Shown one piece after another: positions 6,459 to 32,033 of a stretch of 34,507 nucleotides of DNA (positions within the stretch are counted from its first letter, which is position 1; each line of letters opens with the position of its first letter). A program made the translations under genes and the position numbers. The notes beneath the pieces are model-generated. The model was not told where the DNA came from. It saw nothing but the letters and a program-made list of their open reading frames with translations, and did no database searches. Source of the stretch: a virus. The stretch is from the IMG/VR virus record IMGVR_UViG_3300048599_000204, one strand, 5' to 3'.

Positions 6459-6474
6459 CGTTTCCCGGGAAACG
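6459..6474. promoter_or_regulatory. parS/NBS-like 16-bp palindrome CGTTTCCCGGGAAACG, copy 1
   Basis: Perfect palindrome, 3 nt upstream of the HNH start codon. Confidence 0.6.
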
Positions 6475-6477
6475 CTT

Positions 6478-6825
6478 ATGCCTAGCAAGGCGCCCACCGC
6501 ATGCAAGCGGTCCGGCTGCGCAGGCTTAGTACATGAGGGCGTGTGCTCAGTGTGTGGCCCACTGCGCCAGGCGGCCGCCGGCGAGCATGACCAGCGGCGC
6601 GGCACGGCTGCCCAGCGTGGCTATGGTGGCAGGTGGCAAAGGGTCAGGGCCATGTACCTGCGCAGCCATCCGCTATGTGTTATGTGTGAGCGCGAGGGAC
6701 GCGTAAGTATTGCGACCGATGTCCATCACAAAATACCTAAGCGGCAGGGCGGGCAGGACACAGAGAGCAACTTCGAGGCCCTGTGTCACGAGTGCCATTC
6801 CAAGGTCACAGCCTTGGGGGGGTAG
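6478..6825 (+). CDS. HNH endonuclease (packaging-associated type)
   Basis: RGYGGRWQRVRAMYLRSHPLCVMCEREGR...DVHHKIP...NFEALCHECHSKVT is a classic phage HNH with Cys/His zinc knuckles. It sits directly upstream of terS/terL. Confidence 0.9.
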   Translation: MPSKAPTACKRSGCAGLVHEGVCSVCGPLRQAAAGEHDQRRGTAAQRGYGGRWQRVRAMYLRSHPLCVMCEREGRVSIATDVHHKIPKRQGGQDTESNFEALCHECHSKVTALGG

Positions 6826-6927
6826 GGGTATGCGGATCTTGGGGGCCTCTCGGGCCTAGACCGCCGCCGAAGTCACGCGCGCACGAATGGGGGTTTTGGA
6901 GTGAAAGTGCAGGGGGCAAATTAGTGC

Positions 6928-7407
6928 ATGGGGAGTAGGGGACCACTTCCGAAACGGCGCGCAGCGAGCGCACGCACGGCTGATGGGGTGCGGCTGCGCC
7001 AGCTGCCTGACGAGGCGGATGCCATTTTCAAGCGGCTGGCCAGGGACATCGCAGGCCTCACGCCGGCGGACGTCGCAATCGTCGAGGACACGGCCAGGTG
7101 GACGGCGATCGCCAAGGCTGCCTATGGCCAGTTGCTGGCAGGCGAGCAGGCGCCGACGGCGGAGCAGATGGAAAAGCAAGAGATCGAGATGCGGCTGACC
7201 GTTACGGACACGACGCACGGCAACAAAGAAGAGAGCCGCAAGAATCCGCTGCTGATTGTCCTGCGCACGGCCAGCGAGCAGATCCGCGCCAACGCTCAGC
7301 AGCTCGGGGCCACGCCGCTGGCAAGGGCGCGCATGCCGGAACCGGACCACGAGCAGATGAGCCTGGCTGACATCCTCTTTGCGGATGTGGCGGCGACGAA
7401 TGAATGA
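6928..7407 (+). CDS. terS: Terminase small subunit (P27-family-like)
   Basis: The N-terminus GSRGPLPKRRAASARTADG..LP.EADAIFKRLARDI is typical of P27-type TerS. ATGA overlap with terL. Confidence 0.8.
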   Translation: MGSRGPLPKRRAASARTADGVRLRQLPDEADAIFKRLARDIAGLTPADVAIVEDTARWTAIAKAAYGQLLAGEQAPTAEQMEKQEIEMRLTVTDTTHGNKEESRKNPLLIVLRTASEQIRANAQQLGATPLARARMPEPDHEQMSLADILFADVAATNE

Positions 7408-8957
7408 CTACCTATTGGTTCGACCAGCGGGCCGCCACCATTGCCGAGAGGTTCTTCGATCGCATGCTGGTGCACATCGAGGGGCCGATGGCCGGGCGGC
7501 CGTTTCTCTTGGAGCCCTGGCAGCGGACCATCGTGCGCGACCTCTGGGGGTGGAAGACGGTCGACGGCCGCCGGCGCTACCGCAAGGTCTATTTGGAGAT
7601 TCCCCGCGGCAATGGCAAGTCGACCTTTGCTGCAGGCCTGGCGCTGCTGCTGCTCGCCGTCGACGGCGAACGATCTGCCAAGGTCTATTCAGCGGCCGCA
7701 GACAAACATCAGGCGGCCATCGTGTTTGAGACGGCGGAGAAGATGGTCGACGCCAGCCCGTTCCTGCAGCCGCGCATCAAGGCCTACAGAAATAGGACCA
7801 TGGACTTTGCCGAGACTGGCAGCCGCTACATAACATTGTCTTCGGATGCCTATACCAAGCATGGGCTCAACCCGCATGGCATCGTGTTCGATGAGCTGCA
7901 TGCGCAACCTAACCGTGAGCTGTATGACGTCCTTAACACGGCCATGGGCAAACGCCGGCAGCCGCTGATGATCATGATTACGACGGCTGGGTACGACCGG
8001 AACAGCATTTGTTGGGAGCAGCACGAGTACGCACGGCAAGTGGCAGATGGCATCATCGACGACCCGACCTTTTACCCTGCCATCTGGGCGGCCGAAGAGG
8101 GCGACGACTGGACCAGCCCGGAGACGTGGCGCAAGGCGAATCCCAACTATGGGGTGTCGGTCAGGGAAGACTTCTTGCGCCAGGAGTGCATCACAGCGGT
8201 GGCCAGTCCGGCCTACCAGAATACGTTTCGGCGGCTCTACCTCAACCAATGGACGCAGCAGGAGAACAGGTGGCTGGATATGCTGGCCTGGGACTCGTGC
8301 AATGCGCCACTGCCGGATCTCGCTGGTCGCGTGTGCTATGGCGGCCTGGATCTCGCTACGACCACGGACATTGCAGCGTTCGTGCTGGCCTTCCCGCCAG
8401 TCGACGACAACGAGCCGACCTGGCTGCTGCCCAGCTTCTTCATTCCAGAGGCGAACATGCGTGAGCGGGTGCTGCGCGATCGGGTGCCTTATGACGCCTG
8501 GGTACGAGATGGCCTCGTGATCGCCACGCCGGGCAACGTCACGGACTACGGCCGGATTGAGGCGCACATCACAGGACTCATGGAACAGTATGAGATCCGT
8601 GAGGTGGCGTTCGACCGTTGGGGCGCGGCGCAGATCACGCAGGATCTGACGGCGGCCGGGCTCACGATGGTCCAGATGGGGCAAGGTTTCGCATCGATGA
8701 GCGCACCGTCGAAGGAGCTGCTGCGGCTGGTGCTGTCGCAGGGCATAGGGCACGGTGGCAATCCCGTTCTGCGGTGGATGGCGGACAACGTGACGGCGGA
8801 GCAGGATGCGGCCGGGAACGTTAAACCAAGCAAGGCCAAGTCGAGAGACAAGATAGACGGCATCGTGGCGGCCATCATGGGGCTCGACCGGGCCACGCGC
8901 AACGCCGGCGACGGCGGTCGCAGTGTATACGAGGAGCGAGGGATTCTATCACTATGA
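7404..8957 (+). CDS. terL: Terminase large subunit
   Basis: ERFFDRMLVHIEGPMAGRPFLLEPWQ..., the Walker A-like IPRGNGKST, and a C-terminal nuclease region (GGLDLATTTDIAAF...DKIDGIVAAIMG). Confidence 0.96.
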   Translation: MTTYWFDQRAATIAERFFDRMLVHIEGPMAGRPFLLEPWQRTIVRDLWGWKTVDGRRRYRKVYLEIPRGNGKSTFAAGLALLLLAVDGERSAKVYSAAADKHQAAIVFETAEKMVDASPFLQPRIKAYRNRTMDFAETGSRYITLSSDAYTKHGLNPHGIVFDELHAQPNRELYDVLNTAMGKRRQPLMIMITTAGYDRNSICWEQHEYARQVADGIIDDPTFYPAIWAAEEGDDWTSPETWRKANPNYGVSVREDFLRQECITAVASPAYQNTFRRLYLNQWTQQENRWLDMLAWDSCNAPLPDLAGRVCYGGLDLATTTDIAAFVLAFPPVDDNEPTWLLPSFFIPEANMRERVLRDRVPYDAWVRDGLVIATPGNVTDYGRIEAHITGLMEQYEIREVAFDRWGAAQITQDLTAAGLTMVQMGQGFASMSAPSKELLRLVLSQGIGHGGNPVLRWMADNVTAEQDAAGNVKPSKAKSRDKIDGIVAAIMGLDRATRNAGDGGRSVYEERGILSL

Positions 8958-9145
8958 CGCAACGTAAACCGCAGGCGGTGGATGCATCGGATGGCATGGT
9001 CACGCTGGGGCTGCTGCTGCTGGCGGCCGCCATCTGGTGGGCCTGGGGGTTGGCGGCTGTGCTGGCCTACGCGGGCATGGTCTTCGTGATCATGGGCTTC
9101 TCAATGGCCTACCAGCGGGCAAGGACGGGGAGGCGCAATGAGTGA
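8954..9145 (+). CDS. Small membrane protein (two TM helices)
   Basis: ATGA overlap with the terL stop. VTLGLLLLAAAIWWAWGLAAVLAYAGMVFVIMGF. Confidence 0.65.
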   Translation: MTQRKPQAVDASDGMVTLGLLLLAAAIWWAWGLAAVLAYAGMVFVIMGFSMAYQRARTGRRNE

Positions 9146-9395
9146 GGATTACACCTATCCGCCGATACGGCTGCCGGGCAACGAGCTGGCCTATACGGTA
9201 CATGTTATCGAGCGCACGCAGCTGCGGCCGGGGGATCTGCTGGTGCTGACCACGCCCGTATTCCTCACGGATGAGATGGTGGCCACCATGACGGCGCGCA
9301 TGCGGGGCCTGGTGCCCAGCGGCGTGCGGGTGGCGGTGATGGATGGCGGACTCACGATCGGCGGCATTATCGGCGCGCAGGATGGGCGTGAGTAG
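9138..9395 (+). CDS. Hypothetical protein (85 aa)
   Basis: The start overlaps the upstream gene by 8 nt. Family not recognised. Confidence 0.6.
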   Translation: MSEDYTYPPIRLPGNELAYTVHVIERTQLRPGDLLVLTTPVFLTDEMVATMTARMRGLVPSGVRVAVMDGGLTIGGIIGAQDGRE

Positions 9396-9408
9396 TGAGG
9401 TGGGCATT

Positions 9409-9609
9409 ATGGCACGGCTGACAGGCAGGCAGCAGCAGATCGTCCGGCAGCTGGCGGCAGGCAAGTCGCAGAAAGAGATTGCCCGGCAGCTGGGCATCAG
9501 CTACAGCACGGTGCGCAACCACATGCGCCAGGCGCGGGACAGGACAGATTGTCGCAGCTCTATTGAGCTTGCGGTCAAGGCGGATCGTGAGCTGCGCACG
9601 TTGGGATAG
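9409..9609 (+). CDS. Stand-alone LuxR/GerE-type HTH transcription regulator (66 aa)
   Basis: LTGRQQQIVRQLAAGKSQKEIARQLGISYSTVRNHMRQA is a canonical LuxR_C HTH. The ATG follows GAGGTGGG. Confidence 0.85.
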   Translation: MARLTGRQQQIVRQLAAGKSQKEIARQLGISYSTVRNHMRQARDRTDCRSSIELAVKADRELRTLG

Positions 9610-9612
9610 GGC

Positions 9613-9641
9613 TTGAATCGGTAGCACACCTGTGCTATTCT
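9613..9641 (+). promoter_or_regulatory. Sigma70-type promoter: TTGAAT, 17-nt spacer, TGc-TATTCT (extended -10)
   Basis: Read directly. It begins 4 nt after the LuxR-type gene stop. Confidence 0.55.
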
Positions 9642-9647
9642 ATTCGT

Positions 9648-9841
9648 GAGCTGGGGCTGGCTGGCCCTCCTAAAGCCAGTCTCGGGGGAGCCCTGGCTCA
9701 CTTCTTCTCCTTCGTGCTGCTCCTTTCGGCAGGGCCGTCGGCTCTCATGGGTCGGCGGCATCTTTTGCCTTACAGAATAGACACCTGTGCTATAGACATA
9801 ATGCGTGCTCAGTCGCTACGATCACCGTAGCGACTTTTTTT
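9648..9841 (+). ncRNA. Candidate terminated leader or small RNA of about 190 nt between the promoter and the intrinsic terminator
   Basis: No credible ORF. There are several imperfect hairpins (for example the GTGAGC 9646-9651 / GCTCAC 9696-9701 outer stem). A second TGcTATAGA box lies at 9788-9796, and the interval ends in a strong terminator. Confidence 0.3.
9811..9841 (+). terminator. Rho-independent terminator
   Basis: AGTCGCTACG atcac CGTAGCGACT (perfect 10-bp stem) followed by a T7 run. Confidence 0.85.
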
Positions 9842-9864
9842 ATTGCCTGCTAGGGGGCAACAGC

Positions 9865-12079: not shown

Positions 12080-12081
12080 CC

Positions 12082-13254: not shown

Positions 13255-13284
13255 TCAGGCGGGTGGCTTAGAGAAAGAGTGACC

Positions 13285-15693: not shown

Positions 15694-16220
15694 TGCCTAA
15701 ACGCAAGGGGGCGCGGCGCAAGCTGCAGATCGAATGGTACGGCGACGACTTCCTGCAGGTCGTGCGCGACCACGGCGACGATGCGCTGTTTGCGGCGGGC
15801 GAGATCGTCATGCACGCGGCAGAACGCAAGGCGCCGCGCAAGAGCGGCAAGCTGCGGGGCTCCGGCTACGTGTCGACGGCCAGCCGCAGCACCTATGAGC
15901 GGCGCAAATACTGGCGCAAAGAGAAAAAGCCACCGGTCAATGGCGTCACGGTGGGCTTTAGTGCCCCACACGCCCACCTGATCGAATCGGGGCGGCGCAA
16001 GTCGGGGCGCTTCGGCACCATCAAGGGCCGGCGCGGCACGAACAAGCGGGCGCTGAAGATCGGGGATCGCTTTGTGAGTCGCAGCCGCTTTAAGCGGGTA
16101 TCTTCGCAGCCGTTTTTGGGGCCTGCACTCGAAGAGACGAAAACCACGATGGTCGAAGAGTTGGCGAAGACTTACCGGGGCTGGCTGGAGCGGCTGCTGC
16201 CGGCGGGGCTGGGGCGATGA
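15693..16220 (+). CDS. HK97 gp10-like neck / tail-completion protein
   Basis: APRKSGKLRGSGYV...APHAHLIESG...SQPFLGPALEE pattern, with synteny. Confidence 0.75.
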   Translation: MPKRKGARRKLQIEWYGDDFLQVVRDHGDDALFAAGEIVMHAAERKAPRKSGKLRGSGYVSTASRSTYERRKYWRKEKKPPVNGVTVGFSAPHAHLIESGRRKSGRFGTIKGRRGTNKRALKIGDRFVSRSRFKRVSSQPFLGPALEETKTTMVEELAKTYRGWLERLLPAGLGR

Positions 16221-16597
16221 ACGCAGGTAACATCATCTACGACAAGCTGATCGCCAATGCCGCTGTTGCGGCCATCGTCGCGGCACGTATCTATCCAATT
16301 GACGCACCCCTCGACGTGGATCTGCCCTGCTGCTACTACGACGTGCAGCTGGGGCCGGTCGGGGATGGGTCGGCGCCGCTGTCCACTGCGCAGCTGCAGG
16401 TGGGGTGCCTGGCGCACAGCGAGGCTACGGCACACAGCCTGGCCAACGCAGTGCATGCGGCGCTCGATGGTCTGTCCGCCACTGACACGGGCACCTGGCT
16501 GCGGGGGCTGCGCCAGCTGGGCCGCACGGAGAACAGGGACGCAGAAAACAATCTATGGGGAGTGCTGCTGGTGTATGGGGCCAGCGTGACGTTCTAA
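16217..16597 (+). CDS. Tail terminator / tail-completion protein (by position; DUF3168-like guess)
   Basis: ATGA overlap with the upstream gene. Last gene before the major tail protein. Confidence 0.55.
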   Translation: MNAGNIIYDKLIANAAVAAIVAARIYPIDAPLDVDLPCCYYDVQLGPVGDGSAPLSTAQLQVGCLAHSEATAHSLANAVHAALDGLSATDTGTWLRGLRQLGRTENRDAENNLWGVLLVYGASVTF

Positions 16598-16605
16598 TGG
16601 CCCGG

Positions 16606-16621
16606 CGTTTCCCGGGAAACG
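16606..16621. promoter_or_regulatory. parS/NBS-like 16-bp palindrome CGTTTCCCGGGAAACG, copy 2
   Basis: Perfect copy in the 33-bp gap before the major tail gene, directly abutting its GGAGGA RBS. Confidence 0.6.
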
Positions 16622-16630: not shown

Positions 16631-17224
16631 ATGGCAGTTGCAGACATTCTACTGAGCCCAGCCCGCATTTTCTACGCGGCTGTTGGCACGGCATTGCCCA
16701 ACCCCAACTCGGTGGCATATGGCGCGGCCTGGACCGCGCCGTGGGCAGACCTCGGTTATACGCTCACGCCGATCACGGTGGGCTTTAACCAGGAAGTTTA
16801 CAAGTTGGAGGTCCAGCAGGTGACGTTACCCATCAAGGGGCTGATCACCATGCAGGAAGTGACGATCGAGACGACGCTGGCGGAAATCACGGCCGCCAAC
16901 CTGCTGCTTGCCTTTGGCGGCGCGGTCACGACCACGGCGGCCGGCACGTCGCAGGTAGCCTTGGAGGAGCTGAAGAGCGGCGGGTCCAGCTCGATCCCCT
17001 ACTATGCCTGGGGGCTGGAGGGTCTGTACGTCGACGCTTCCAACAACCAGCTGCCCGTACGCGTGCTCATCTATAAGGGCAGCGCCGTGCTGAATGGCAA
17101 TCTGACCTTTGCGAAGGCGGAGCCGGTGGGGATCCCGCTGCAGATCACGGCCTGGGCGGATACGACCAAGACGGCAGGTCAGCAGCTATGGACCTTCCAG
17201 AAGACGACGGCGCCGCACACCTAG
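16631..17224 (+). CDS. Major tail (tube) protein
   Basis: Position immediately upstream of the G/GT chaperone pair. 197 aa, beta-rich and Thr/Ala-rich, as is typical of siphovirus tube proteins. Confidence 0.8.
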   Translation: MAVADILLSPARIFYAAVGTALPNPNSVAYGAAWTAPWADLGYTLTPITVGFNQEVYKLEVQQVTLPIKGLITMQEVTIETTLAEITAANLLLAFGGAVTTTAAGTSQVALEELKSGGSSSIPYYAWGLEGLYVDASNNQLPVRVLIYKGSAVLNGNLTFAKAEPVGIPLQITAWADTTKTAGQQLWTFQKTTAPHT

Positions 17225-20739: not shown

Positions 20740-22920
20740 ATGTTTTACGTCGACATTGAGGACGCCAGCGGCAACAAATTAGGCACGGGGCCGATTACGT
20801 CGGCTGCGAGCTGGCGCGTAGCGCGTCCTATGGACGGCGCCGGGCAGTGGTCGTTTACGGCGCCCATGGCCGATGTCAAGACCAGCCAGGCTACACCGCG
20901 GCGCTATGCCCACATTTATGCCTACGTGGGGAGCTCCTATCAGTGGGTAGGCGGCGGCCCGATCGACGCCATCAGCACCAGCATCGGCGCCGACGGCACG
21001 GTCGAGGCGGAGGTCAGCGGCGCCGACATGCTGCGTGAGCTCGCATGGCGTTCTGTGGGGTCGCTGACCATCTCCGATGGCGCCGGCGGACCAACTACGC
21101 ATGCCGCAGCCCTGGCGGCCGTGATGGCGTTGGCGCCGTTGGGCTGGACCTGGACGCCAGATCCAGCGCCAGGCTGGGATCTGTTATATGGCCAGTTTGG
21201 CGGCGAGACGGTGCTGGCGGCGCTGGCCAGCGTGGCGGAGCGCAGCCGCTCACACTATTATTTGAGCTCGCGGCGCAGCTTAACTTTTGCTACATCCTTC
21301 GTTTCCAGCGGCGTGCGCTGCGTGGCGGCCAGCCAGGCGCTGGGCACTGGCCAGGCCGCAATCACGAGCCTGGACGCCGAGCGGTCGAGCTATGACCTGG
21401 TGTCGCGCATCATCCCAGTCGGCAGCGGGCAATCAAAGGTTGCGCTCACGCTGCGCGCTACGGGTCGTGCGGCGCCGGCCGGCTACACGTTGAGCGCAGC
21501 ATCCAACTATCTGCGCAACGATGGCGTCGAGTCATCCTATGGACGCTGCGAGCGGGTGGTGGCCTTTAAGGACATCGCACCCCTATCGTCGACCACGGCC
21601 GATGTCATCAGCGCGGCGAATATGCTTTTCGATGCTGCCAAATACTGGCTGGACCAGCACAGCGCGCCGGTCAACACCTATCGCCTAACCATCGCAGAGT
21701 GCCCGGTCCTGGTGCGGCCCCTGCAGACCGTGCGCGTCGTATGGCGTGACCCGGCGCAGGGCACCAGTATTGATGCGGATCTCTACGTGCTGGCTGTCGA
21801 GTGGCAGGGGGATGCCAGCGGTGTGCGGACGGCGGCCCTGACCGTGGCAGATACGCCATTGTGGCCGGAGAGCGATGTCAGTGCCGTAGTCGAGAGCATT
21901 ACGCAGGGCACCATCTATCAGGCGCTGCCGCAGCTCAACGCCAACGCTTATGTGATCGCCTACACCAAGAACGTCGACGATGTGGAGCAGGCCAACTTCC
22001 GCTTTCGCTTCGACGAGGACACTGTGCAGCTGGTGCGGGTGGTCTTCGACTTCCAGCTACTGCCGCTGGAGTCGACGGTCAAGAGCACGGGCGCAAGCAG
22101 CATCAGCTCGGACGCCAGTGGTGACCACTCGCACACGGTGACGATCGCCGCGCACACGCACTCCGTCACCATCAACAGCCATCAGCATGACGTGACGATC
22201 AACAGCCACACGCACACGGTCACGATCGGCGACCACACGCACAGCGTTTCCGTGCCCAGCCACACTCATGGCGTCCCGAATCATCAGCACCGCATCGGGA
22301 TCAGCCAAGGCTCAGGCGGGCGCAACGTAGGGCTGTTTACAGGCGGCGGCATGTATTACGAGGGCACCGATGTGGGCGTCGTGTCGATCTACACCACATC
22401 CGACAGCGGCAGTACCACAAGCAACAGCGGCGGCAGCTCGACGCCGACGAGCGGCAATGGCGGTGCCACTGCGCCCACGAGCAGCGCCGGCGGCAGCCAG
22501 ACGGCCACCAGCACGGCGGGCGGCAGCCAGACGGCGACAGCTGCATCAGGCGGCGGCAGCACACCTACCAGTGCCAGCGGCGGCAGCCACACGCACACGA
22601 TCACGGCGGCAATCACAACGACATACGGCATCTTCCGCGACTCTGGCGCCAATACGTTCGGCCTGACTGACCTGGAATACAGCCTCGACGGCTCGACCTG
22701 GTATGGGTTTGCCGTCGGCGTCAACGGCTTTGCCAATTTGTCAGATGGCTGGTATCGGGTGGATCTGACGGCACTGTTGCAGGATGCGACCACGCTGCGG
22801 CCGCTGGCCAACAACAACAACCTGCAGATCCGGCGCAAATCGACCGGGTCAATTAAAAAGGCGACGATCGATGCGCAGCTGGGCGTGCGCAACATCATCC
22901 AGGCGCTGGCGCTGAATTAG
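20740..22920 (+). CDS. Tail-tip / tail-associated protein (Tal-like) with HxH repeat and Gly/Ser/Thr repeat segments
   Basis: The N-terminus MFYVDIEDASGNKLGTGPI...W.F resembles siphovirus tail-component N-termini. HxH units at 22120-22290 and GGSxTxTS units at about 22399-22607. Confidence 0.65.
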   Translation: MFYVDIEDASGNKLGTGPITSAASWRVARPMDGAGQWSFTAPMADVKTSQATPRRYAHIYAYVGSSYQWVGGGPIDAISTSIGADGTVEAEVSGADMLRELAWRSVGSLTISDGAGGPTTHAAALAAVMALAPLGWTWTPDPAPGWDLLYGQFGGETVLAALASVAERSRSHYYLSSRRSLTFATSFVSSGVRCVAASQALGTGQAAITSLDAERSSYDLVSRIIPVGSGQSKVALTLRATGRAAPAGYTLSAASNYLRNDGVESSYGRCERVVAFKDIAPLSSTTADVISAANMLFDAAKYWLDQHSAPVNTYRLTIAECPVLVRPLQTVRVVWRDPAQGTSIDADLYVLAVEWQGDASGVRTAALTVADTPLWPESDVSAVVESITQGTIYQALPQLNANAYVIAYTKNVDDVEQANFRFRFDEDTVQLVRVVFDFQLLPLESTVKSTGASSISSDASGDHSHTVTIAAHTHSVTINSHQHDVTINSHTHTVTIGDHTHSVSVPSHTHGVPNHQHRIGISQGSGGRNVGLFTGGGMYYEGTDVGVVSIYTTSDSGSTTSNSGGSSTPTSGNGGATAPTSSAGGSQTATSTAGGSQTATAASGGGSTPTSASGGSHTHTITAAITTTYGIFRDSGANTFGLTDLEYSLDGSTWYGFAVGVNGFANLSDGWYRVDLTALLQDATTLRPLANNNNLQIRRKSTGSIKKATIDAQLGVRNIIQALALN

Positions 22921-22927
22921 GAGGCAT

Positions 22928-24056: not shown

Positions 24057-24077
24057 GCACTGCATTTCTGGGAAACG

Positions 24078-24108
24078 AAAGGGCCGACCCTCATCAGGTC
24101 GGCCCTTT
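24078..24108. terminator. Bidirectional hairpin terminator between the convergent late (+) and early (-) blocks
   Basis: AAAGGGCCGACC ctcatca GGTCGGCCCTTT: a perfect 12-bp stem with A/T runs on both sides. Confidence 0.85.
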
Positions 24109-24115
24109 GATTGCA

Positions 24116-24355: not shown

Positions 24356-24420
24356 GTCTCCTTATCATCGGGCTGTTTTTCATTATTGTCGGGCATGTAC
24401 AGTCCTAGTGACAATACTGA

Positions 24421-24810: not shown

Positions 24811-24897
24811 CTGTCGTCCTCACTTATCCTTGGGCCTGTGGCGGTTATCGTCGGGGCCACCACAGGCCGAGTGACAATGCCGTTTATCTACGGGACG

Positions 24898-25335: not shown

Positions 25336-25377
25336 TGTCTCTTTCCTTTGCGGGCACCTGCCCGCAGATAACTGTCA

Positions 25378-25701
25378 CTATCGCCGGACCGGTGGGTGAC
25401 CTGCCCGGCAGTTGTGGTAATCGCCCTTGTTCGCTGCCCGTTCGTTCTGCGCAGCCGTGATGGCTCGCACATCGATGATCTCAGCGATCGCCTGCCGGTC
25501 ATGCTCGCTGACCAAACCCCAGATGGCGGCCAGGGCCCGGCCGAGCAGCTGGCAGCGCTCCTGCAGTGGCGCCACTAGTTGGGCAGCGTCGATCAGGGCC
25601 TGCGCCTCCTGCCTGGACATTCCCACGATCGCAGAGTCGTATTGCTCCGCGTTTGAGATCCCCTTGGTCACATCCTCGATCACATGTTGCAACTCGTTCA
25701 C
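25378..25701 (-). CDS. Hypothetical protein (107 aa)
   Basis: The GTG start overlaps the parB stop (GTGA) and is preceded by GGAGGAG. Confidence 0.6.
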   Translation of the reverse strand: MNELQHVIEDVTKGISNAEQYDSAIVGMSRQEAQALIDAAQLVAPLQERCQLLGRALAAIWGLVSEHDRQAIAEIIDVRAITAAQNERAANKGDYHNCRAGHPPVRR

Positions 25702-27602
25702 AGTTGTATCTCCTCCGGATGTGTGTCCGCCGGCGTCTCTGGCTGCAGCAGTTCGGCCCACACGCCGCCCTTCGGCTGGGCGAACTCCGCGCCGATCTTC
25801 TTCAGCCAGATCTGCGTCTTCTTCATGTCCCATTGCTGTGAGTCGCCGTCTACCTGGAACTGGCTCCAGCTGGTGCAATGACCTTTGGCTACATGCATCC
25901 AGATCCGCTCCTGGATAGTCAGGGCGTCCAGCGTATCGATCTGGTTCTTGGTGGCATAGGTCGTGAAGCTATCGGCCCGGAACAGGTCGCGCATGAACGC
26001 CGTGTTATGCCATATGTCCTGCGCCGTCATGCGGTAGAAGGCATCTCGCAGTAAATCCATACAAGCTGAGTTTTGTGCCTTGACTGCAGCCCGCTTGGCT
26101 GTCATATCGCCGTGCTCGAGCTCCTGTCGACGCCGTGCCAAGCGTTGGGCCGACGTGCAGCCATAACACATGTTTGGCGCATGCTCCGGATCCGGGCGAA
26201 AGTGTTCATCGCCGGCGCGTTCGTGGTATGCCACCACGAAGCACTTGCACTGCTCCGCGCTGCACATGCCCTTCTCGATCAGCACGCCAGGCGCCTCACC
26301 GTATGCGCCGCGCTTCGTGAACCAGTTCGGTGTCTCGCTGGGCTTGTCCGGCACAAAAACGTTGGCGGCGGGCGCCGGCGTGGAAGTATGCGTCGGCACC
26401 GTGGAAGTATGTTCGGTCATGCTTTGGTCTATGCGATCGCTGCCCGCCGGCGTTTCCCGGGAAACGGTCGGCGCTGCTGGGCGCTGAATGGCCTGCGCCT
26501 GCTGTTCCGCCTGCTGCCGTGCCCATGCCCGATCCTTGGCCACATGGCACGCGCGTTGGCTTGTGCCCACCCACTGGTGCGTGCAGCGCGGGCCGTTCTC
26601 TCCGGAGAACGTCACGTTCCATCGGCATCCCTCGCACGGTCCAACGATGTCGCCGTCCGCCGGCGCTTGCCAGTCATACGGCCAGGCATGGGGATCAAAG
26701 CTGCGAGTGTCGAGATCGCTACCCCAACTCCGCATTTTGTATTTGGTGTTCTTCTTTGGGGCCAGCGGCTCACAGGCGACGATAAGTCCAGCGACATGCT
26801 CTTCAAGGGTTTTGCGCGGCATGGCGCCGAGTTCCGCCGGCGTGCGCTTCACTAGGTGCCAGGCCTCCTTCAGGGCCAGCAGCGTGCGGCCGTGCGTCTC
26901 GCTGAGCACGCCGTTGACGATCGCCTGCTGGTATTCCTCCGGCAGCTCGAGCAGGCGCAGCAGGTTGCTGGCGGCGCTGCGGCTCATGTCCATGGACGCA
27001 GCTGCGTCGGTGATCGTCATGCCCAGCTCGCTGGTTGCCCGCTGCAAGGCCTGCGCCTTCTCGATCGCGCTGATGTCACGGCGGGCAGCGTTCTCGACGA
27101 TGGCCTGCTGCCACAGCTGCGTGTCAGTGAGCGGCACGAGCACGATCGGCATGTCGGCGTATGTCGCCGGGTCGAACTCGCGCCCGTTCCACAAAACCTG
27201 CTCCGTGCCCTCGAGCTGCGGGAAAATGCTCTTGACGCCGGCGGCCAGCACATCGAATGCCAGGCGCCTGCTGTGCCCGAACGCCATTTCGACGACGTAC
27301 TGCGGATCGGCGATATAGCCGCGGATGGCGTCCGGGTTGTCGTAGTCGCCGGCCGGCGGCTGCCAGCTGTCGGCCCAGCGCACGATCCGTCCCATGGGCA
27401 CCTGCTGCAGGCCTCGCGTCTCCGGCAGCGTCGGCTGCAGGTCGATCAGGCTCTTGGCAATGCCCAGCACGTGGTCCGGGTCGTTATACTGCCGCGGCTG
27501 GTAGCTGTTGTCGACGAGGCGGCCCAGCGGCACCAGGTACGTGGCCAGTCCCTGCGTTTCCCGGGAAACGGGCTGCGAGCCCTTGTGCAACAGACTAAGC
27601 AT
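25698..27602 (-). CDS. parB: ParB-family protein (634 aa): ParB N-terminal (CTPase-type) domain plus HTH, fused to a long Cys-rich C-terminal extension
   Basis: YQPRQYNDPDHVLGIAKSL...FGHSRRLAF (GxxRxxA box) and EKAQALQRATSELGMTITDAAASMDMSRSAASNLLRLLELPEEYQQAI (ParB HTH). The ATG at 27602 overlaps the parA stop by 8 nt. Confidence 0.88.
   Translation of the reverse strand: MLSLLHKGSQPVSRETQGLATYLVPLGRLVDNSYQPRQYNDPDHVLGIAKSLIDLQPTLPETRGLQQVPMGRIVRWADSWQPPAGDYDNPDAIRGYIADPQYVVEMAFGHSRRLAFDVLAAGVKSIFPQLEGTEQVLWNGREFDPATYADMPIVLVPLTDTQLWQQAIVENAARRDISAIEKAQALQRATSELGMTITDAAASMDMSRSAASNLLRLLELPEEYQQAIVNGVLSETHGRTLLALKEAWHLVKRTPAELGAMPRKTLEEHVAGLIVACEPLAPKKNTKYKMRSWGSDLDTRSFDPHAWPYDWQAPADGDIVGPCEGCRWNVTFSGENGPRCTHQWVGTSQRACHVAKDRAWARQQAEQQAQAIQRPAAPTVSRETPAGSDRIDQSMTEHTSTVPTHTSTPAPAANVFVPDKPSETPNWFTKRGAYGEAPGVLIEKGMCSAEQCKCFVVAYHERAGDEHFRPDPEHAPNMCYGCTSAQRLARRRQELEHGDMTAKRAAVKAQNSACMDLLRDAFYRMTAQDIWHNTAFMRDLFRADSFTTYATKNQIDTLDALTIQERIWMHVAKGHCTSWSQFQVDGDSQQWDMKKTQIWLKKIGAEFAQPKGGVWAELLQPETPADTHPEEIQL
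26451..26466. promoter_or_regulatory. parS/NBS-like palindrome, copy 3 (inside parB, encodes VSRET)
   Basis: Perfect CGTTTCCCGGGAAACG. Confidence 0.6.
27555..27570. promoter_or_regulatory. parS/NBS-like palindrome, copy 4 (codons 11-16 of parB, encodes VSRET)
   Basis: Perfect CGTTTCCCGGGAAACG. Confidence 0.6.
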
Positions 27603-28317
27603 GCGAGGCCTCCTGCATCTTGCTCCAAACCTTGTCGGCGACTGCGGCGAAGAAGCCGTCGATCTGCTCGTCCGCATCGGTGCCTCTGCGGTAGGGGATA
27701 ACGCCGACGGCGCCGATCTCATTCAGGATGATCTCCACGTGGGTCCGGTGCAGATTGGTGTGGCCCTGTACCTTGTTGATCAGCGCACCGACGACAGCGG
27801 GCGCCTCTCCCAGCTCCTCGCCCAGCCAGTCGATCAGCGCACGTATGCGGCGCATGCCCTCGATGGCGTCCAACTCGGGGTCAAGCACGATGAGCACGTG
27901 GGTGGCCGCCACGAGCGCATTGACGGTGAGGATGTTGGCGGCCGGGCTGCAGTCGACGAGCACCACGCCGTGATCGGATACCGTCCGGAGCGCGCTGGCC
28001 AAGAACTGGTGATTAGGGCTGCGACCTTGGATGGCGGCCGCCGTGTCCTCGAGCTTGATGTCGCTGCCGATGAGGCTCACGCCGCCGGCGCCGAGCTGTG
28101 TGGCGCGCTGCAGCGTGGTGCGGCGCATCATCACGTCGCCGATGCTGTTGGCATTGTTTACGCAGCCGCTCAACACACGCGTGAGGTTCGCCTGCGGGTC
28201 CAAGTCGATGCATAACGGTTGATGGCCCTGGCGCTGCCAGTGGCGGGCCAGGCCGTTGGTTGTCGTGGTTCTACCCACGCCGCCTTTGTTGTTGACTACT
28301 GCGAGTACGGGTGTCAT
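27595..28317 (-). CDS. parA: ParA-family partition ATPase (240 aa) with Arg at the P-loop Lys position
   Basis: The deviant Walker A reads VVNNKGGVGRTT (canonical KGGVGKTT). CIDLDPQANLT follows. ATG 28317 follows AAGGAG. Confidence 0.88.
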   Translation of the reverse strand: MTPVLAVVNNKGGVGRTTTTNGLARHWQRQGHQPLCIDLDPQANLTRVLSGCVNNANSIGDVMMRRTTLQRATQLGAGGVSLIGSDIKLEDTAAAIQGRSPNHQFLASALRTVSDHGVVLVDCSPAANILTVNALVAATHVLIVLDPELDAIEGMRRIRALIDWLGEELGEAPAVVGALINKVQGHTNLHRTHVEIILNEIGAVGVIPYRRGTDADEQIDGFFAAVADKVWSKMQEASHA

Positions 28318-28409
28318 TGTGTTGCTCCTTGCAAATTTTGGCTCGTGTACGGTCACGTTTTGGGCGCTGATCGGTGCCGCCTGCGTTACCGCATGTGTGT
28401 CCAGATGTG

Positions 28410-28871
28410 TTACCGCTTCGATGTGCGGACGGCGCCGCGCGGCAGCCGCACGATCAGGCGCTCAATGCCGCCAGCCTCGACGACCTTGACCGCATGGTCG
28501 ATCGCCTGCAGGCAGTCGGCCACGTCGTCGAGCACGAACGCATCGGCGACGGCCAGCTGGCTGTCGAGCACACGCGCCAGTTTCAGCAGCGCGATCGCCC
28601 ACTGCCAGCGGCGGATGCTCATGCCATAGGAGAGCGCATTACGCCGGGTCACACTGTATCCGGCCGCGCGCCAGCCCACGATCTGGCGGGCGTCGGCGGC
28701 GGCACGATGCAGCAGCCGGCCCTGTTTGCCGTTCTGTGTCATGCGGCGCAATCTCCTATTCTCTGCCTGTACGGTGGCCAGCTTGACATGCGCCTGATCG
28801 AGCTGCAGCTGCAGCAGCGCCGCGTCGTTCTGTGCCGTGATCGCGGCCCGTGCTTGTGCCGTAGTGGTCAT
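28410..28871 (-). CDS. Hypothetical protein (153 aa)
   Basis: ATGA overlap with the upstream gene. Family not recognised. Confidence 0.6.
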   Translation of the reverse strand: MTTTAQARAAITAQNDAALLQLQLDQAHVKLATVQAENRRLRRMTQNGKQGRLLHRAAADARQIVGWRAAGYSVTRRNALSYGMSIRRWQWAIALLKLARVLDSQLAVADAFVLDDVADCLQAIDHAVKVVEAGGIERLIVRLPRGAVRTSKR

Positions 28872-29419
28872 CGTCCACCCTCATTCCGTTCCAGCACCTG
28901 CAGGTAGGCGTCCAGCGCCATGCGGCGCAGCTCCTGTTCGTGGTCCATCTGCCGTTCTACCAGGTAAGCCGTCGTGTCAACTTTGTGGCGTTCCGTGCCC
29001 TCGCGGCTGTAGTCGTAGTCTGTGCGGTTCAGACGGTAGTACGTGTAGGCGGTCAACGCTGTGAATGCCAGCAGCGCCAGCAGGGCGGCGCCTGGCGCAT
29101 TCTGGGCCACCATCAGCACAACTACGAACACAATCACGGACATGAGAGCCCACAGCCCCACGAAGGGCAGCAGCCGCACCCGCAGCGCCTTAGCCCGGTC
29201 CATAGCGCTTGTGCGCTCCTGGGCACCGTCAGCCGTCTCTAGCGCCCGTGTGAGGTCTTGCTGCTGCTGCTGTACCATCCATGCCGGTGCGTCGATGGTG
29301 ATGGGCTGCGCCTTAGCCAGCGGAGCCGGCGCCGCAACGAAATTGCGCTGTGCTGCCCGCTCGCGCTGTAGCTGCAACCACACCTGCGCGGGCGTCTCGT
29401 CTTCGTCGTAGGGGGTCAC
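28868..29419 (-). CDS. Membrane protein (two TM helices, 183 aa)
   Basis: The GTG start overlaps the upstream stop (GTGA). LLPFVGLWALMSVIVFVVVLMV and GAALLALLAFTALTAYTYY. Confidence 0.6.
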   Translation of the reverse strand: MTPYDEDETPAQVWLQLQRERAAQRNFVAAPAPLAKAQPITIDAPAWMVQQQQQDLTRALETADGAQERTSAMDRAKALRVRLLPFVGLWALMSVIVFVVVLMVAQNAPGAALLALLAFTALTAYTYYRLNRTDYDYSREGTERHKVDTTAYLVERQMDHEQELRRMALDAYLQVLERNEGGR

Positions 29420-29823
29420 TTGGCACCCCCTCTCAGCTCCAAGTTGGCGAACCGCGCCGCCGTCCGGTTGGCAACCACGGGCACGGGTGCCGGTGCTACT
29501 ACTACCGGTGTAGGCCAGTCCTCGACGACAAGCGGTAATTCGTCGCCGTCGTCCCAATCGTCTAGATCGTCAACCTCCACTGGTGCCGGAACAATGGCGA
29601 CATGCACGGGTTCATGCCAACCCGCCGGCGGACCTAACACGCGCCGCTGCGAGTGTGGCACGCTTGCCGTGATGTTGGCACGGCGGGATGGGGCACACAG
29701 TGTCGAGTCGTAATCGTCGTCGCCGTATATGTTGGTTCGTTGCCTACTCGCTATGGCAAAAATCAAAATGCCCCATCCCAACAGCACTGCCGCGCCTGTT
29801 GCCAGTAATGTAATCTCGTTCAT
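29416..29823 (-). CDS. N-terminally anchored membrane protein (135 aa), acidic and Pro-rich
   Basis: ITLLATGAAVLLGWGILIFAIA is TM-like. ATGA overlap with the upstream gene. Confidence 0.6.
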   Translation of the reverse strand: MNEITLLATGAAVLLGWGILIFAIASRQRTNIYGDDDYDSTLCAPSRRANITASVPHSQRRVLGPPAGWHEPVHVAIVPAPVEVDDLDDWDDGDELPLVVEDWPTPVVVAPAPVPVVANRTAARFANLELRGGAK

Positions 29824-30203
29824 AGCGCCAACACCCCCACAAGCATCGCAACCACGATCACCACGGCGGCCGCCAACAGCAGCCCACGCCCGCCGCGCCG
29901 TTGCTCCGTCTGCCCGAAACCGCTATCACCTACCACGGGCACGCCGTAGGTCTGCATCAGGTATTGGGCGTAGGGTGCGGCCGCCTCGTTCAGCCGGAAG
30001 ATAAACACGTCGCCAAACAGCTGCCAGCCCCATGTTTCGATGTTGTATTCGTTCATCAGGTCGTTTACTGCATACAGGCTCCAACTGCCGTCTACGTCGA
30101 TGGTAAAGCCCGCGCCGCCGCCGTGCTGCGAATCCTGGTAAAGGGACCATAGGGGCGCAATCCAGTCGAAGGTAGTGCCCGCCTCTAGCATCTTGTCAAT
30201 CAT
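29820..30203 (-). CDS. C-terminally anchored membrane protein (127 aa)
   Basis: C-terminal GLLLAAAVVIVVAMLVGVLAL. ATGA overlap with the upstream gene. Confidence 0.6.
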   Translation of the reverse strand: MIDKMLEAGTTFDWIAPLWSLYQDSQHGGGAGFTIDVDGSWSLYAVNDLMNEYNIETWGWQLFGDVFIFRLNEAAAPYAQYLMQTYGVPVVGDSGFGQTEQRRGGRGLLLAAAVVIVVAMLVGVLAL

Positions 30204-30478
30204 GCCGCACCCCCTGCCGGCTGCAGCTGGGCCTCGCTGGGCACGGTGGCGGCCAGCATCGTCAGCGCGTCGCCGAGCTGGTCGGTAGTGCTGCAGCTGC
30301 GCACCAGGTCGAGCAGATCCGAAAGCTCGATTAGCCCGGCGTCAATGGCTGCGCCGAGTATCGCGCAGACGGCCGTCGTAGCCGTGCACATCCGCCGTGC
30401 TTCGCAGCGCCTGATCAGCTCGCTGGAGATCGGTCCTGGGGCGGGTCGTGTTAAAACGTTGTTGCGAGTGAGTAGCAT
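30200..30478 (-). CDS. Hypothetical protein (92 aa)
   Basis: ATG 30478 follows GGAGA. The upstream extension in the ORF track crosses an intergenic regulatory region. Confidence 0.55.
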   Translation of the reverse strand: MLLTRNNVLTRPAPGPISSELIRRCEARRMCTATTAVCAILGAAIDAGLIELSDLLDLVRSCSTTDQLGDALTMLAATVPSEAQLQPAGGAA

Positions 30479-30493
30479 GTTATTCTCCAATCG

Positions 30494-30522
30494 TTGGATT
30501 GGGCCGCCAGCCATGCTATACT
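30494..30522 (+). promoter_or_regulatory. Strong sigma70-type promoter on the + strand: TTGGAT, 17-nt spacer, TGc-TATACT, antisense to the early operon
   Basis: Read directly. The -10 element sits in the loop of the 11-bp inverted repeat GGCCGCCAGCC (30502-30512) / GGCTGGCGGCC (30525-30535). Confidence 0.5.
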
Positions 30523-30576
30523 GGGGCTGGCGGCCTGTCGGTTGCCTGGAGGCCTGACGTCTGCTTCGCTGCGGTG

Positions 30577-30846
30577 TCAGGCCTTCTTCATTACCACTCG
30601 GTCCGGGAGCACCTCGACTCCATTGGGCCAGCGAATCCATCCAGACTCCAGATCGACCACGGCGCCGGCGTCCTCGAGCGTCACGATGACCTTCGACGGC
30701 ATCGGCAGCGGCTGGCCAGTCTCCCGCGACCATGCTACCAACTCGTGGCGCCGCCGCTCCTCGCGTGCCGCTTGGACCTCATCCAGAAAGACGCTGAATG
30801 CCGCATGGTCGATGCCAGGGCGGAGGAATGTACTGATAGTGTTCAT
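30577..30846 (-). CDS. Hypothetical protein (89 aa)
   Basis: The ATG follows AAGGAGA. The palindrome copy 5 lies 20 nt upstream of its start codon. Confidence 0.6.
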   Translation of the reverse strand: MNTISTFLRPGIDHAAFSVFLDEVQAAREERRRHELVAWSRETGQPLPMPSKVIVTLEDAGAVVDLESGWIRWPNGVEVLPDRVVMKKA

Positions 30847-32033
30847 GCGCTGTCTCCTTGTGATTGCGTTTCCCGGGAAACGGACTCCGGGATGATGAAC
30901 TCGACGAGCGCAGGCCTGCGGGTGATGACCGATAGCTTGCGCACGATCTGCTTACTCAGCCGGTTGCGAACCCAGTCGGCTCGCATCGCATCTGGCAGGA
31001 CAATTCCGAAGGCGTTGGACTCCTCGATGTAGGCCAGCACATACGTGCCGTCCAGCCAGCGGTCGAACGAACCGGCCTGCTCAATTTCGAGCTCCTTGCG
31101 CACCTGCTGCCAGTAGGCCTCGGGGCTGCCTGGCGCCGGCTCAACCGCCTCGGGTGTGGCGGCCGCCGGAGGCGCCTCTTCGTCGGCCAGGCGCTGCGCC
31201 TCGTCGAGCGCCGCCTGCTCGGCCGCCAACTCGTCCGGGGTGCGGTGGTCGCGGTACAGCTCGCAGCGGCGAAACTCGTCCGAGAGGGTGGGGATCGTGA
31301 ACTCGTCCGGCCGGTCCAGCCAGGTGATGACGATCCCTGGCGTCGTCTCAAACCGTCCGCCGGCGGACTTGCGGCCGCAGTACCAGTGCGCAACCGCGTC
31401 CCGGATCTCCCAGAACGGGTGGGCGACGGCCAGGCGCTGGGCGATCTTCGGGCTCACGGTGACGCGTTTGTCCGTGAGGAGCCTATACGAGAGCGGCGCC
31501 TCCCACGGCTGGTGCTTGGTTGGTTTGTTAGTTAGTTCTGCGTTTTGGTTAGGATCAGAACTAACTAACAAACTAACCGCCTGCGCGCTCGCGTATAGGT
31601 CGTGGTCGTTTTCCGCGCGTGGGGTAGTCGTTTTTCGCGCGTGGGATGGTCGTTTTTCGCGCGTGGGGTGGTCGCTGTCGTTTTCGGCAGTTTCCTCATC
31701 GCGCGTGGGATGGTCGTTTTTCGCGCGTGGGATAGTCGTTTTCCGCGCGTGGGATGGTCGTTTTTCGTCACTACTGCGAACCCACGCTTTGAAATTGACG
31801 TAGATCATCCCGTTCCCGTTCGAGCTGTAGTGAATGAGATCTGACGCCTGCAGCAAAGACATGTGCTTGCGTGTGCGTGCGATGCTGATGTGCCCGAACG
31901 CCCGCGCCAGGTCCTCCCACGAGATGGCCACGTGACCATTGTCAGGGTGAGCAAGGCTCAGCAGCGCCAGTGCATTCGCCTTGGTCGTCGGCGGTATATC
32001 GGACTCGTTAATCTCTTCCACTACTTCAATCAT
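30843..32033 (-). CDS. Replication initiator, lambda-O-like organisation (winged-helix N-terminus; origin iterons inside the gene)
   Basis: N-terminal wHTH-like LALLSLAHPDNGHVAISWEDLARAFGHISIARTRKHMSLLQASDLI. A 22-bp iteron array and an AT-rich inverted repeat are embedded at 31523-31765. Confidence 0.6.
   Translation of the reverse strand: MIEVVEEINESDIPPTTKANALALLSLAHPDNGHVAISWEDLARAFGHISIARTRKHMSLLQASDLIHYSSNGNGMIYVNFKAWVRSSDEKRPSHARKTTIPRAKNDHPTRDEETAENDSDHPTREKRPSHARKTTTPRAENDHDLYASAQAVSLLVSSDPNQNAELTNKPTKHQPWEAPLSYRLLTDKRVTVSPKIAQRLAVAHPFWEIRDAVAHWYCGRKSAGGRFETTPGIVITWLDRPDEFTIPTLSDEFRRCELYRDHRTPDELAAEQAALDEAQRLADEEAPPAAATPEAVEPAPGSPEAYWQQVRKELEIEQAGSFDRWLDGTYVLAYIEESNAFGIVLPDAMRADWVRNRLSKQIVRKLSVITRRPALVEFIIPESVSRETQSQGDSA
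30867..30882. promoter_or_regulatory. parS/NBS-like palindrome, copy 5 (3' end of the initiator gene, encodes VSRET; upstream of 30846 start)
   Basis: Perfect CGTTTCCCGGGAAACG. Confidence 0.6.
31523..31573. repeat. AT-rich 18-bp perfect inverted repeat (GTTTGTTAGTTAGTTCTG / CAGAACTAACTAACAAAC) with a 15-nt spacer; candidate DNA-unwinding element
   Basis: Arms at 31523-31540 and 31556-31573. GC is far below the genome average. Confidence 0.8.
31590..31765. repeat. Origin iterons: six 22-bp direct repeats CGCGCGTGGG(G/A)T(A/G)GTCGTTTT(T/C) plus one degenerate leading copy
   Basis: Units at 31614, 31636, 31658 (with insertion), 31700, 31722 and 31744. Degenerate copy at 31590. Confidence 0.85.

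Follow-up and report, generated by a model that had tools for sequence, protein, structure and literature searches.

What is a 16-bp palindrome doing in five identical copies, scattered around a phage genome that also encodes a ParA and a ParB? The question is raised by the viral record IMGVR_UViG_3300048599_000204, a stretch of 34,507 nucleotides (hereafter the window) in which the palindrome CGTTTCCCGGGAAACG occurs at 6459, 16606, 26451, 27555 and 30867. The original prediction, made from the letters of the window alone, held that these elements are hybrids between parS, the site of chromosomal ParB, and NBS, the Noc-binding site, and that they act as centromere or loading sites for the phage ParB. 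The computational analysis described here supports that answer in part: with a probability of about 0.7, the five palindromes are nucleation or loading sites (parS) of the phage's own ParB. The sites and the two partition genes are the following.

6459 to 6474: site 1, in the 21-bp gap between the open reading frame (ORF) at 6373-6456 and the HNH endonuclease gene, 3 nt before the start codon at 6478.
16606 to 16621: site 2, in the 33-bp gap between the ORF at 16217-16597 and the tail-tube gene at 16631-17224.
26451 to 26466: site 3, in the part of parB that encodes the low-complexity linker, where it reads V-S-R-E-T.
27555 to 27570: site 4, codons 12-16 of parB (V-S-R-E-T), 25 nt downstream of the parA stop codon.
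30867 to 30882: site 5, within the last 13 codons of a 396-residue rep-like ORF (V-S-R-E-T), 21 nt upstream of the gene start at 30846.
25698 to 27602, minus strand: parB, 634 residues, with a ParB/Srx-type N-domain, a ParB helix-turn-helix (HTH), a low-complexity linker and a Cys-rich C-terminal half.
27595 to 28356, minus strand: parA, 253 residues, Soj/MinD-type (Pfam AAA_31, E=1e-29, and CbiA), adjoining parB.

The sites exist as described and are not random. Each of the five copies is exact at the coordinates first reported, and the three said to lie just 5' of gene starts (6478, 16631 and 30846) do so. The proposed scan for near-copies against shuffled controls found no further copy with up to 3 mismatches in the window; five copies stand against 0.11 expected, and 0 of 100 dinucleotide-preserving shuffles reached five. 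Since the flanks of the five copies share no common sequence, being alike over one or two bases at most, the repeated unit is the 16-mer and not a longer repeat. The half-site GTTTCCC occurs 12 times in the window against 2.4 expected, with 10 of these 12 inside the five sites. One of the two extra half-sites marks a decayed sixth site, which lies beside a hairpin.

24062 to 24077: decayed sixth site GCATTTCTGGGAAACG, right half intact and left half degenerate, at the convergent junction of the late (plus-strand) and early (minus-strand) genes.
24078 to 24110: GC-rich hairpin AAAGGGCCGACC...GGTCGGCCCTTT beside the decayed site, read from the sequence as a probable bidirectional terminator.

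It is extremely improbable that the motif is no protein site at all but a repeat arisen by chance, a packaging signal, a target of restriction or modification, or an RNA element such as a hairpin or terminator. A hairpin of 6 bp is possible within the 16-mer, and one of the positions that the motif takes in relatives adjoins a terminator; the RNA hairpin was nevertheless rejected, its folding energy of -5.8 kcal/mol (z = -0.8) being no more stable than that of shuffled sequence. Three sites lie within ORFs, and a T run follows 0 of the 5 intact sites. Chance is excluded by the shuffles, and a genome with five cos or pac sites would be cut into fragments. The motif does hold CCCGGG, which is otherwise depleted in the window, but sixteen invariant bases go far beyond what restriction or modification needs, and scans of 30 window ORFs against Pfam or PHROGs turned up no methyltransferase. 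As a separate observation, CCCGGG occurs only 2 times in the window outside the five sites, against 14.9 ± 3.8 expected, and the CG-to-CA centre variant found in relatives destroys both CCCGGG and CCGG. The depletion may be a sign that the ParB site is under pressure to avoid restriction.

By sequence and model comparison, the 634-residue protein is a genuine member of the ParB/Noc/KorB family, and the claim that the genome encodes both ParA and ParB is borne out by Pfam, PDB, Foldseek and hhalign. Pfam returns HTH_ParB only (PF17762, E=1.1e-18, residues 216-287 of the long ORF), PF02195 lying below detection at E<0.01. With phmmer, residues ~130-280 match the PDB sequences of Spo0J, ParB and Noc (E 5e-15 to 1e-6). 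An AlphaFold2 model built with 17 homologs reaches a predicted local distance difference test score of ~90 over residues 20-290, and its best Foldseek matches are ParB-CDP (6sdk), Noc, Myxococcus ParB, Caulobacter ParB-parS and KorB; the matches span ~260 columns, so that the N-domain and the DNA-binding domain are both covered. Alignment to B. subtilis Spo0J by hhalign gives a probability of 99.5% and pairs NSYQPR with NPYQPR, GLQQVP with GILQPL, FGHSRRLA with AGERRFRA and ENAARRDIS with ENLQREDLS (phage and Spo0J, respectively). The Spo0J sequence used here agrees with the 6sdk segments returned by phmmer. The residues of the N-domain motifs NxYQPR, GLQQxP, FGHSRRLA and ENAARRD are invariant in the 17 homologs, down to 36% identity, and Box I (QPR), Box II (GxxRxxA) and Box III (ENxxRxD) of the ParB/Srx N-domain are all present. 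Judged by these motifs, the nucleotide pocket of the phage ParB is plausibly functional.

The remainder of the protein is of a different kind. Residues 300-634 comprise a low-complexity linker followed by about ten conserved cysteines in CxxC-like pairs (CxxC...C...C; C..C.C...CxxC). This C-terminal half was modeled by AlphaFold2 with only moderate confidence, and nothing in Pfam, the PDB sequences or Foldseek matches it. None of the full-length family members has the canonical C-terminal dimerisation domain (PF23552) in its precomputed Pfam annotation, and the ParA-binding motif LG(R/K)GL is missing from the N-terminus, which reads MLSLLHKGSQP.

The association of site and protein becomes apparent among relatives. 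These were sought among 5.8 billion proteins, which yielded ~19 full-length ParB relatives, all metagenomic; the DNA examined comprised the loci around nine relatives from the protein search together with relatives in viral contigs. GenBank phages gave no match to the window DNA (25 kb) or to the ParB protein, and PLSDB plasmids no relative, with one generic ParB match at 16% coverage only. A metagenome scan with the ParB alignment returned two or three short contigs and otherwise weak matches (29-40%) in the HTH region of other ParB-family proteins. The motif is present in several copies at every relative-ParB locus examined, with 2-6 copies per 9-22 kb across L042, L047-L052 and L258. Where ParB identity is at least 63% (L042, L047, L048, L049, L051), the identical 16-mer occurs 3-6 times per 13-22 kb. 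At 53-57% identity (L050, L052, L258) the sites are mostly CGTTTCCCAGGAAACG, with CA and not CG at the centre. At 33-48% identity (L043, L044, L045, L053, L054, L271) the site becomes GTTTTCCC(G/A)GGAAAAC, with 1-3 sites each at L043-L045, L053 and L054; such T-type sites are also scattered on 30-35-kb viral contigs that carry a distant-clade ParB (five on 3300015615_000267 and at least four on 3300048591_000988).

The motif scan of related genomes that had been proposed thus finds a motif that tracks the ParB family and switches with the ParB clade. ParBs with R-L-(E/D)-T at the specificity positions discussed below accompany cGTTTCCC(G/A)GGAAACg (G-type) sites, and those with RLQR, NKER, KKNR or RKRR accompany gTTTTCCC(G/A)GGAAAAc (T-type) sites. 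The two types are unmixed in the loci examined, the G-type clade having 34 G against 0 T and the distant clade 0 against 10.

The recognition residues offer a partial explanation for this covariation. Four positions (173, 179, 184 and 201 in Caulobacter numbering) switch ParB between parS and NBS (Jalal et al. 2020, PMC7383237), with R-T-A-G as the parS-specific and Q-K-K-R as the NBS-specific combination; R173 pairs with G at position 1 of the site and R201 with C at position 6. Position 201 tolerates T or S among NBS binders, where R dominates, and C, S or T among parS binders, and the engineered variants RTAR, RKAR and RTKR prefer sites that mix parS and NBS features (PMC7383237). Aligned to Spo0J and Noc, the window ParB reads R-L-E-T at these positions, and the G-type clade R-(L/M)-(E/D)-T. 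R173 fits the outer G of the palindrome and T201 is compatible with its inner C. The core of the palindrome does match both parS and NBS at 12 of 14 positions, as first calculated, and with these residues the 'hybrid' label appears mechanistically reasonable. The permissive lysines are missing from the window ParB (L179, E184). In the T-type clade residue 201 is R, and residue 173 is R, K or N although the site base is T; a plain transfer of the four-residue code to T-type sites was rejected, as R173 is retained in some T-type ParBs.

The sites are also written into genes. All three coding sites of the window are translated in one hydrophilic frame, at an N-terminus, in a linker and at a C-terminus. 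Every relative whose ParB is at least 63% identical keeps the position of site 4, and the N-terminal ParB peptide follows the DNA, reading VSRET at GTTTCCCGGGAAAC and FSQEN at TTTTCCCAGGAAAA (L054, L271). In the linker of relatives, VSRET recurs once or twice per protein at shifting alignment positions. It is the DNA motif that has shaped the parB codons at the sites. In the family as a whole (23 loci), 24 of the 52 sites fall between genes, compared with at most 19% intergenic DNA as delimited by a deliberately loose gene caller (P ~1e-5), and most of the others lie in parB.

Outside parB, site positions turn over among relatives, and three recur: the 3' end of the rep-like gene (site 5, also occupied in L048 at 2487 and in L049 at 3637), the early/late convergent junction (intact in L047, L048, L049, L050, L051, L052 and L177, decayed in the window) and the gap before the HNH gene. 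Sites also occur just after the tail-tube gene (L009, L015) and before the tape-measure gene (L034). The exact 16-mer is found in 27 viral contigs, at least 7 of which are related to the window phage in their structural module; the sites of these lie at various places near the genes for terminase, portal, tail tube and tape measure. Two phages serve as negative controls: L176 and L175, the latter sharing the rep-like gene as well, have a related integrase and contain no ParB, ParA or motif in the stretches examined.

The proposal that the sites load ParB is carried by this co-occurrence, by the covariation with the ParB clade and by the sites within parB; from these we infer direct binding, as well as CTP (cytidine triphosphate)-dependent sliding, partition activity and extrachromosomal maintenance. 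Mechanistically, a ParB dimer would recognize each 16-bp site through the ParB-type HTH, the Arg equivalent to Caulobacter R173 reading the outer G and the Thr at the 201 equivalent accepting the inner C. The ParB/Srx N-domain would then bind CTP, close into a clamp and slide off the site. With the parB pair 1.1 kb apart and three single sites, no gap on the 34.4-kb circle would exceed ~10 kb, so that ParB could be loaded genome-wide. The N-terminal MLxLLHK of ParB would link the complex to the neighbouring Soj-type ParA, and through this coupling the phage DNA would be positioned or segregated during any extrachromosomal stage.

The coupling step draws on the arrangement and sequence of the two genes. 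The parA stop overlaps the parB start codon (ATGCTTAG). MLxLL(H/R)K or a close variant begins ParB in 9 of 9 loci with an adjacent parA and in 0 of 3 without one; the three ParBs without adjacent parA (L052, L054, L258) all begin with MTxR(K/Q)...(I/V)LD..L. This is good indirect evidence, from sequence, that the peptide MLxLLHK is a ParA-interaction element, and it shows that some members of the family use ParB independently of ParA. The Walker A motif of the window ParA is KGGVGRT (residues 24-31 of the listed ORF), with the signature Lys present and Arg in place of the P-loop Lys. The same motif is found in the two closest relatives, L047 and L051, and more distant relatives have KGGxGKT. 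In other ParAs, an Arg in place of the P-loop Lys impairs ATP hydrolysis.

These features bear on a second account in which ParB is again the binder but its purpose is a ParA-independent, genome-wide clamp that silences, compacts or manages the DNA in the manner of KorB, Noc or BisD, ParA-driven partition being an add-on in some members. This account is possible, though on balance doubtful. The three relatives without parA have ParB directly after the rep-like gene and keep scattered sites, and the Lys-to-Arg change in the window ParA points the same way. The sites stand at module borders (lysis/packaging, head/tail, early/late), and ParB-type clamps that regulate at a distance have precedents in KorB and BisD (PMC11790492, PMC12409273). 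On the other side, no promoter-like hexamers were found near any of the five sites (with the sigma-70 consensus, which may not suit the host), promoter and terminator matches in the window are not above shuffled expectation and show no enrichment at the sites, and no KorA-like partner was identified. The intergenic sites are confined to gaps of 21-33 bp within operons, and the turnover of positions outside parB suits placement 'anywhere tolerated' better than fixed operators. The absence of promoters speaks against KorB-style operators, not against roadblocking or compaction. The earlier idea that the sites double as regulatory elements accordingly gains no support: the 21- and 33-bp intra-operon gaps leave no room for a promoter and have no promoter-like hexamers nearby. 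Site 2, for instance, ends 9 nt 5' of the tail-tube start codon at 16631, with a GGAGGA ribosome-binding sequence between.

Spacing bears on the clamp account as well. Bases 1-127 of the window are identical to bases 34381-34507, and from this exact terminal overlap the genome is a circle of 34,380 bp. The gaps around it are 10147, 9845, 1104, 3312 and 9972 bp, the last, across the junction, agreeing with the figure first given. No point of the window is more than ~5 kb from a site, and a largest gap as small as this one has a probability of 0.045; the same statistic is 0.028 for an unrelated 72-kb contig (described below) and 0.55 for the relative c992, which weakens the case for even spacing. 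Three of the five window gaps are nearly equal (10147, 9845 and 9972 bp), and gaps of ~9.6-10 kb recur in c992 and the 72-kb contig. A spacing limit of ~10 kb is hinted at, but overall the evidence is suggestive and not significant.

Against the assignment of the sites to the phage ParB, with CTP clamping and ParA-driven partition, stand several observations. Only one of the three arginines of GERRxRA is kept (GHSRRLA) and PF02195 is not detected, so that CTP binding is not assured from the sequence. The Lys-to-Arg change in the ParA Walker A motif suggests an ATPase with altered or lost hydrolysis. The four-residue code appears to explain the G-type site but not the whole family. The phage carries an integrase and the relative L175 is integrated, so that an episomal stage is uncertain. 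Two further observations concern sites that persist apart from the 634-residue ParB. The first is the relative L177 (SRR22808053_86286), whose integrase is 95% identical to that of the window and which shares many other genes with it. L177 has a different ParA (35% identity) followed by an unrelated 437-residue protein with a DGFHR motif, and no 634-residue ParB in the part examined, the remainder being expected to be the structural module. It nevertheless carries a perfect site at the convergent junction, with the same terminator hairpin, and a 2-mismatch copy, TGTTTCCCAGGAAACG, just upstream of the HNH gene (positions 660 and 16907). The original prediction had named retention of sites by relatives lacking parB as evidence against itself, and L177 shows this in part, with two sites in the same places; the two may have been left behind by a recent swap of modules, or another protein may also read them. 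The second is the unrelated 72-kb viral contig IMGVR_UViG_3300028592_000008 (65% G+C, similar to the window; loci L008, L010, L018, L020, L026, L028, L029, L033 and L041). It contains ten identical 16-mers, usually flanked by AT, of which 7 lie inside ORFs in two frames (VSRET or RFPGN), with gaps of 0.7-13 kb, and no ParB HTH was found in 56 kb (78%) of it by hidden Markov model, tblastn or Pfam on ORFs.

Both cases could be accommodated if the binder were a host protein (a chromosomal ParB or a Noc-like protein) or another phage protein that these phages hijack, the association with the 634-residue ParB being secondary. This is improbable. It would suit the presence of the same 16-mer near unrelated ParB-like genes in the viral contig L007, an Acidimicrobiia genome (L136) and Pirellulales (L141/L169), from which it follows that the hybrid site is not unique to the lineage of the window. 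The Pirellulales metagenome-assembled genome (MAG) contig JASGKV010000017.1 (L141, L169) has three 16-mers within 32 kb beside a long ParB-like protein, whose recognition helix SNLVRLLELP resembles that of the phage ParB; on this likeness, it may represent a related system in a planctomycete. In a scan of one genome per species, at least 120 motif matches, mostly single, were spread across all phyla; 14 of the 120 matches listed fall in Chloroflexota, the phylum suggested by a relative of the integrase. A fixed host factor, however, predicts no switch of the site variant with the phage ParB clade, and one site is embedded in parB at a conserved position. The genome matches listed are nearly all single and from many phyla, and neither this ParB nor a motif-rich genome is among them. 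The 16 kb of the 72-kb contig that remain may encode a ParB. Paired sites in a Dehalococcoidia chromosome and in L335 were considered as marks of ParB genes and rejected, as they lie in a repeat protein (the Dehalococcoidia pair, an unrelated protein) and near an AAA ATPase.

A broader proposal combines parts of these accounts. Genome-wide coating by ParB, which would silence, compact or protect the DNA or recruit host SMC or ParA, would be the conserved function in a temperate phage lineage, possibly of Chloroflexota. Sites would lie at most ~10 kb apart, ParA would be optional, a new zinc-ribbon-like C-terminal domain would be involved, and the sites would survive module swaps, the 16-mer having been adopted by unrelated phages of the same hosts. 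This proposal is unlikely, although not negligible. If true, it would point to a shared, perhaps host-linked, ParB-type system of DNA management in phages.

Loading sites for the phage's own ParB remain the preferred explanation, and the rest of the genome provides their setting. The plus strand (~1-24 kb) encodes a possible holin (weak Pfam match) and other ORFs, an HNH endonuclease (6478-6825), the small and large terminase, portal, protease, capsid, the tail-tube protein (16631-17224), the tape measure and distal tail genes. The minus strand (24.1-34.2 kb) is an early block of nearly all orphan ORFs that includes MazG, ParB, ParA and the 396-residue ORF; among ten early-region ORFs compared with PHROGs, ParB alone had a match, and Pfam adds ParA and MazG. 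The further features are as follows.

30843 to 32033, minus strand: rep-like ORF, 396 residues, without a family match; it adjoins parAB or parB in relatives too.
31518 to 31782: putative origin inside the 396-residue ORF, an AT-rich 23-nt inverted repeat (31518-31578) and iterons (31592-31782).
33984 to 34380, plus strand: N-terminal part of a tyrosine integrase, the gene running on across the circular junction.
1 to 584, plus strand: C-terminal part of the tyrosine integrase (bases 1-127 being the same as 34381-34507).
6373 to 6456: small hydrophobic ORF MTWCWLPILFVGLFYLALFVWMRKTVP of 27 codons, unlisted, overlapping the upstream stop by ATGA and ending 2 nt before site 1.

The 396-residue ORF is a probable replication initiator. 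Its residues 307-383 weakly resemble DnaA domain I (E=0.11), and it contains about eight 22-bp direct repeats, CGCGCGTGGGATGGTCGTTTTT, at 31592-31782. These iterons and the inverted repeat are probably the internal origin of the initiator gene, an arrangement like that of lambda O, where the origin is likewise embedded in the initiator gene. The circular map, the iteron-bearing rep-like gene and the occurrence of relatives as 32-39-kb contigs are compatible with an extrachromosomal replicon.

The integrase (326 residues) spans the junction and is consequently absent from the ORF list of the linear window. Its homologs are mostly on 33-37-kb contigs, with one truncated copy beside host genes in a Caldilineaceae genome. 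This copy belongs to L175 (Caldilineaceae MAG JAHBVH010000069.1), a prophage whose neighbours are genes for an ABC transporter and a thiolase and which carries the truncated integrase homolog and a rep-like homolog. It is the only host clue, pointing possibly to Chloroflexota; the window contains no tRNA or attP clue. The 27-codon ORF upstream of site 1 probably encodes a small membrane protein. Elsewhere in the window, the ORF at 4079-5629 contains about seven tandem 69-bp (23-codon) repeats (4629-5399), and the gene of a 726-residue tail protein has 27-bp and 30-bp repeats at 22125-22609, with His/Thr-rich and Gly/Ser/Thr-rich stretches.

What appears new is a subfamily of ParB whose C-terminal half is Cys-rich and novel, a natural hybrid of the parS and NBS sites with a third variant in sister clades, sites written into ParB and Rep coding sequences, and a ParA that is optional. 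The intermediates between parS and NBS have so far been mapped with engineered proteins. If binding is true, the window would supply a natural ParB for a G1+C6 hybrid site, reading it via R173/T201 without the permissive lysines, and the sister clades would give a natural series for the evolution of ParB specificity. For the biology of ParB clamps, a phage lineage with genome-wide sites, in some of whose members ParA is dispensable, bears on ParB-type CTP switches beyond segregation, and tools for DNA labelling would profit from an orthogonal ParB/site pair. The system would not amount to a new principle unless genome-wide coating or the hijacking of another binder is true.

Among known systems, chromosomal ParABS (Spo0J/ParB, parS tGTTTCACGTGAAACa, Soj/ParA) differs in its site only at the two central-flank positions (12 of 14 in the core). 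Shared with it are sites in or beside parB, a ParB/Srx N-domain with an HTH, R173, and a Soj-type ParA immediately upstream with a stop/start overlap. Unlike in ParABS, the inner base of the phage site is C, as in NBS, and not A, and residue 201 is T and not G. The phage ParB also has a 350-residue Cys-rich region in place of the dimerisation domain, GHSRRLA in place of GERRxRA and no LG(R/K)GL, and its sites are spread around the whole of a 34-kb phage. With the Noc/NBS system of Bacillota (NBS tATTTCCCGGGAAATa) the phage shares an identical inner TTTCCCGGGAAA and sites that are scattered and not clustered, and the ERH(G/A)R motif of Noc with R201 is resembled in the distant-clade phage ParBs. 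Unlike in Noc/NBS, the outer base is G and not A, residue 173 is R and not Q, and L179/E184 supply no permissive K or R; the phage system includes a ParA, has no evident membrane-targeting helix and sits on a phage and not a chromosome. The engineered ParB-to-Noc intermediates of Jalal et al. 2020 come close, in that R173 with a non-Gly 201 prefers mixed sites and T or S at 201 lies on the mutational paths between the specificities. Those variants, unlike the natural phage protein with its L179/E184, were built on the Caulobacter scaffold and needed K at 179 or 184.

The mobile-element systems resemble the phage in layout. In KorB/OB of the IncP plasmid RK2, a CTP clamp of the ParB family is paired with multiple 16-bp palindromes that are spread out over the mobile element, and KorB unites partition with gene silencing (PMC11790492). 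It differs from the phage system, where no KorA-like clamp-locking partner is identified and the sites lie off recognisable promoters, and structural-alignment identity is 15-17%. N15, to which the original prediction likened the phage, is likewise a temperate phage with parA and parB and several single sites dispersed through its genome; PMC3235114, citing Ravin and Lane 1999, describes several single inverted-repeat SopB sites, including some in the late-gene region. The comparison is apt for the dispersed centromeres and uncertain for the plasmid-prophage lifestyle, given the integrase and the integrated Caldilineaceae relative. N15 is moreover a SopA/SopB (type Ia) system with another site on a linear plasmid with a protelomerase, unlike the 253-residue Soj-type ParA, circular map and tyrosine integrase of the phage; SopB is a marginal Foldseek match of the ParB (E ~0.5), and the window has no ORF of protelomerase size except ParB. 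Dispersed centromere sites as such are already known from N15, RK2 and pMF1 (PMC3235114), and ParB-fold proteins are common and diverse on mobile elements (PMC12704722).

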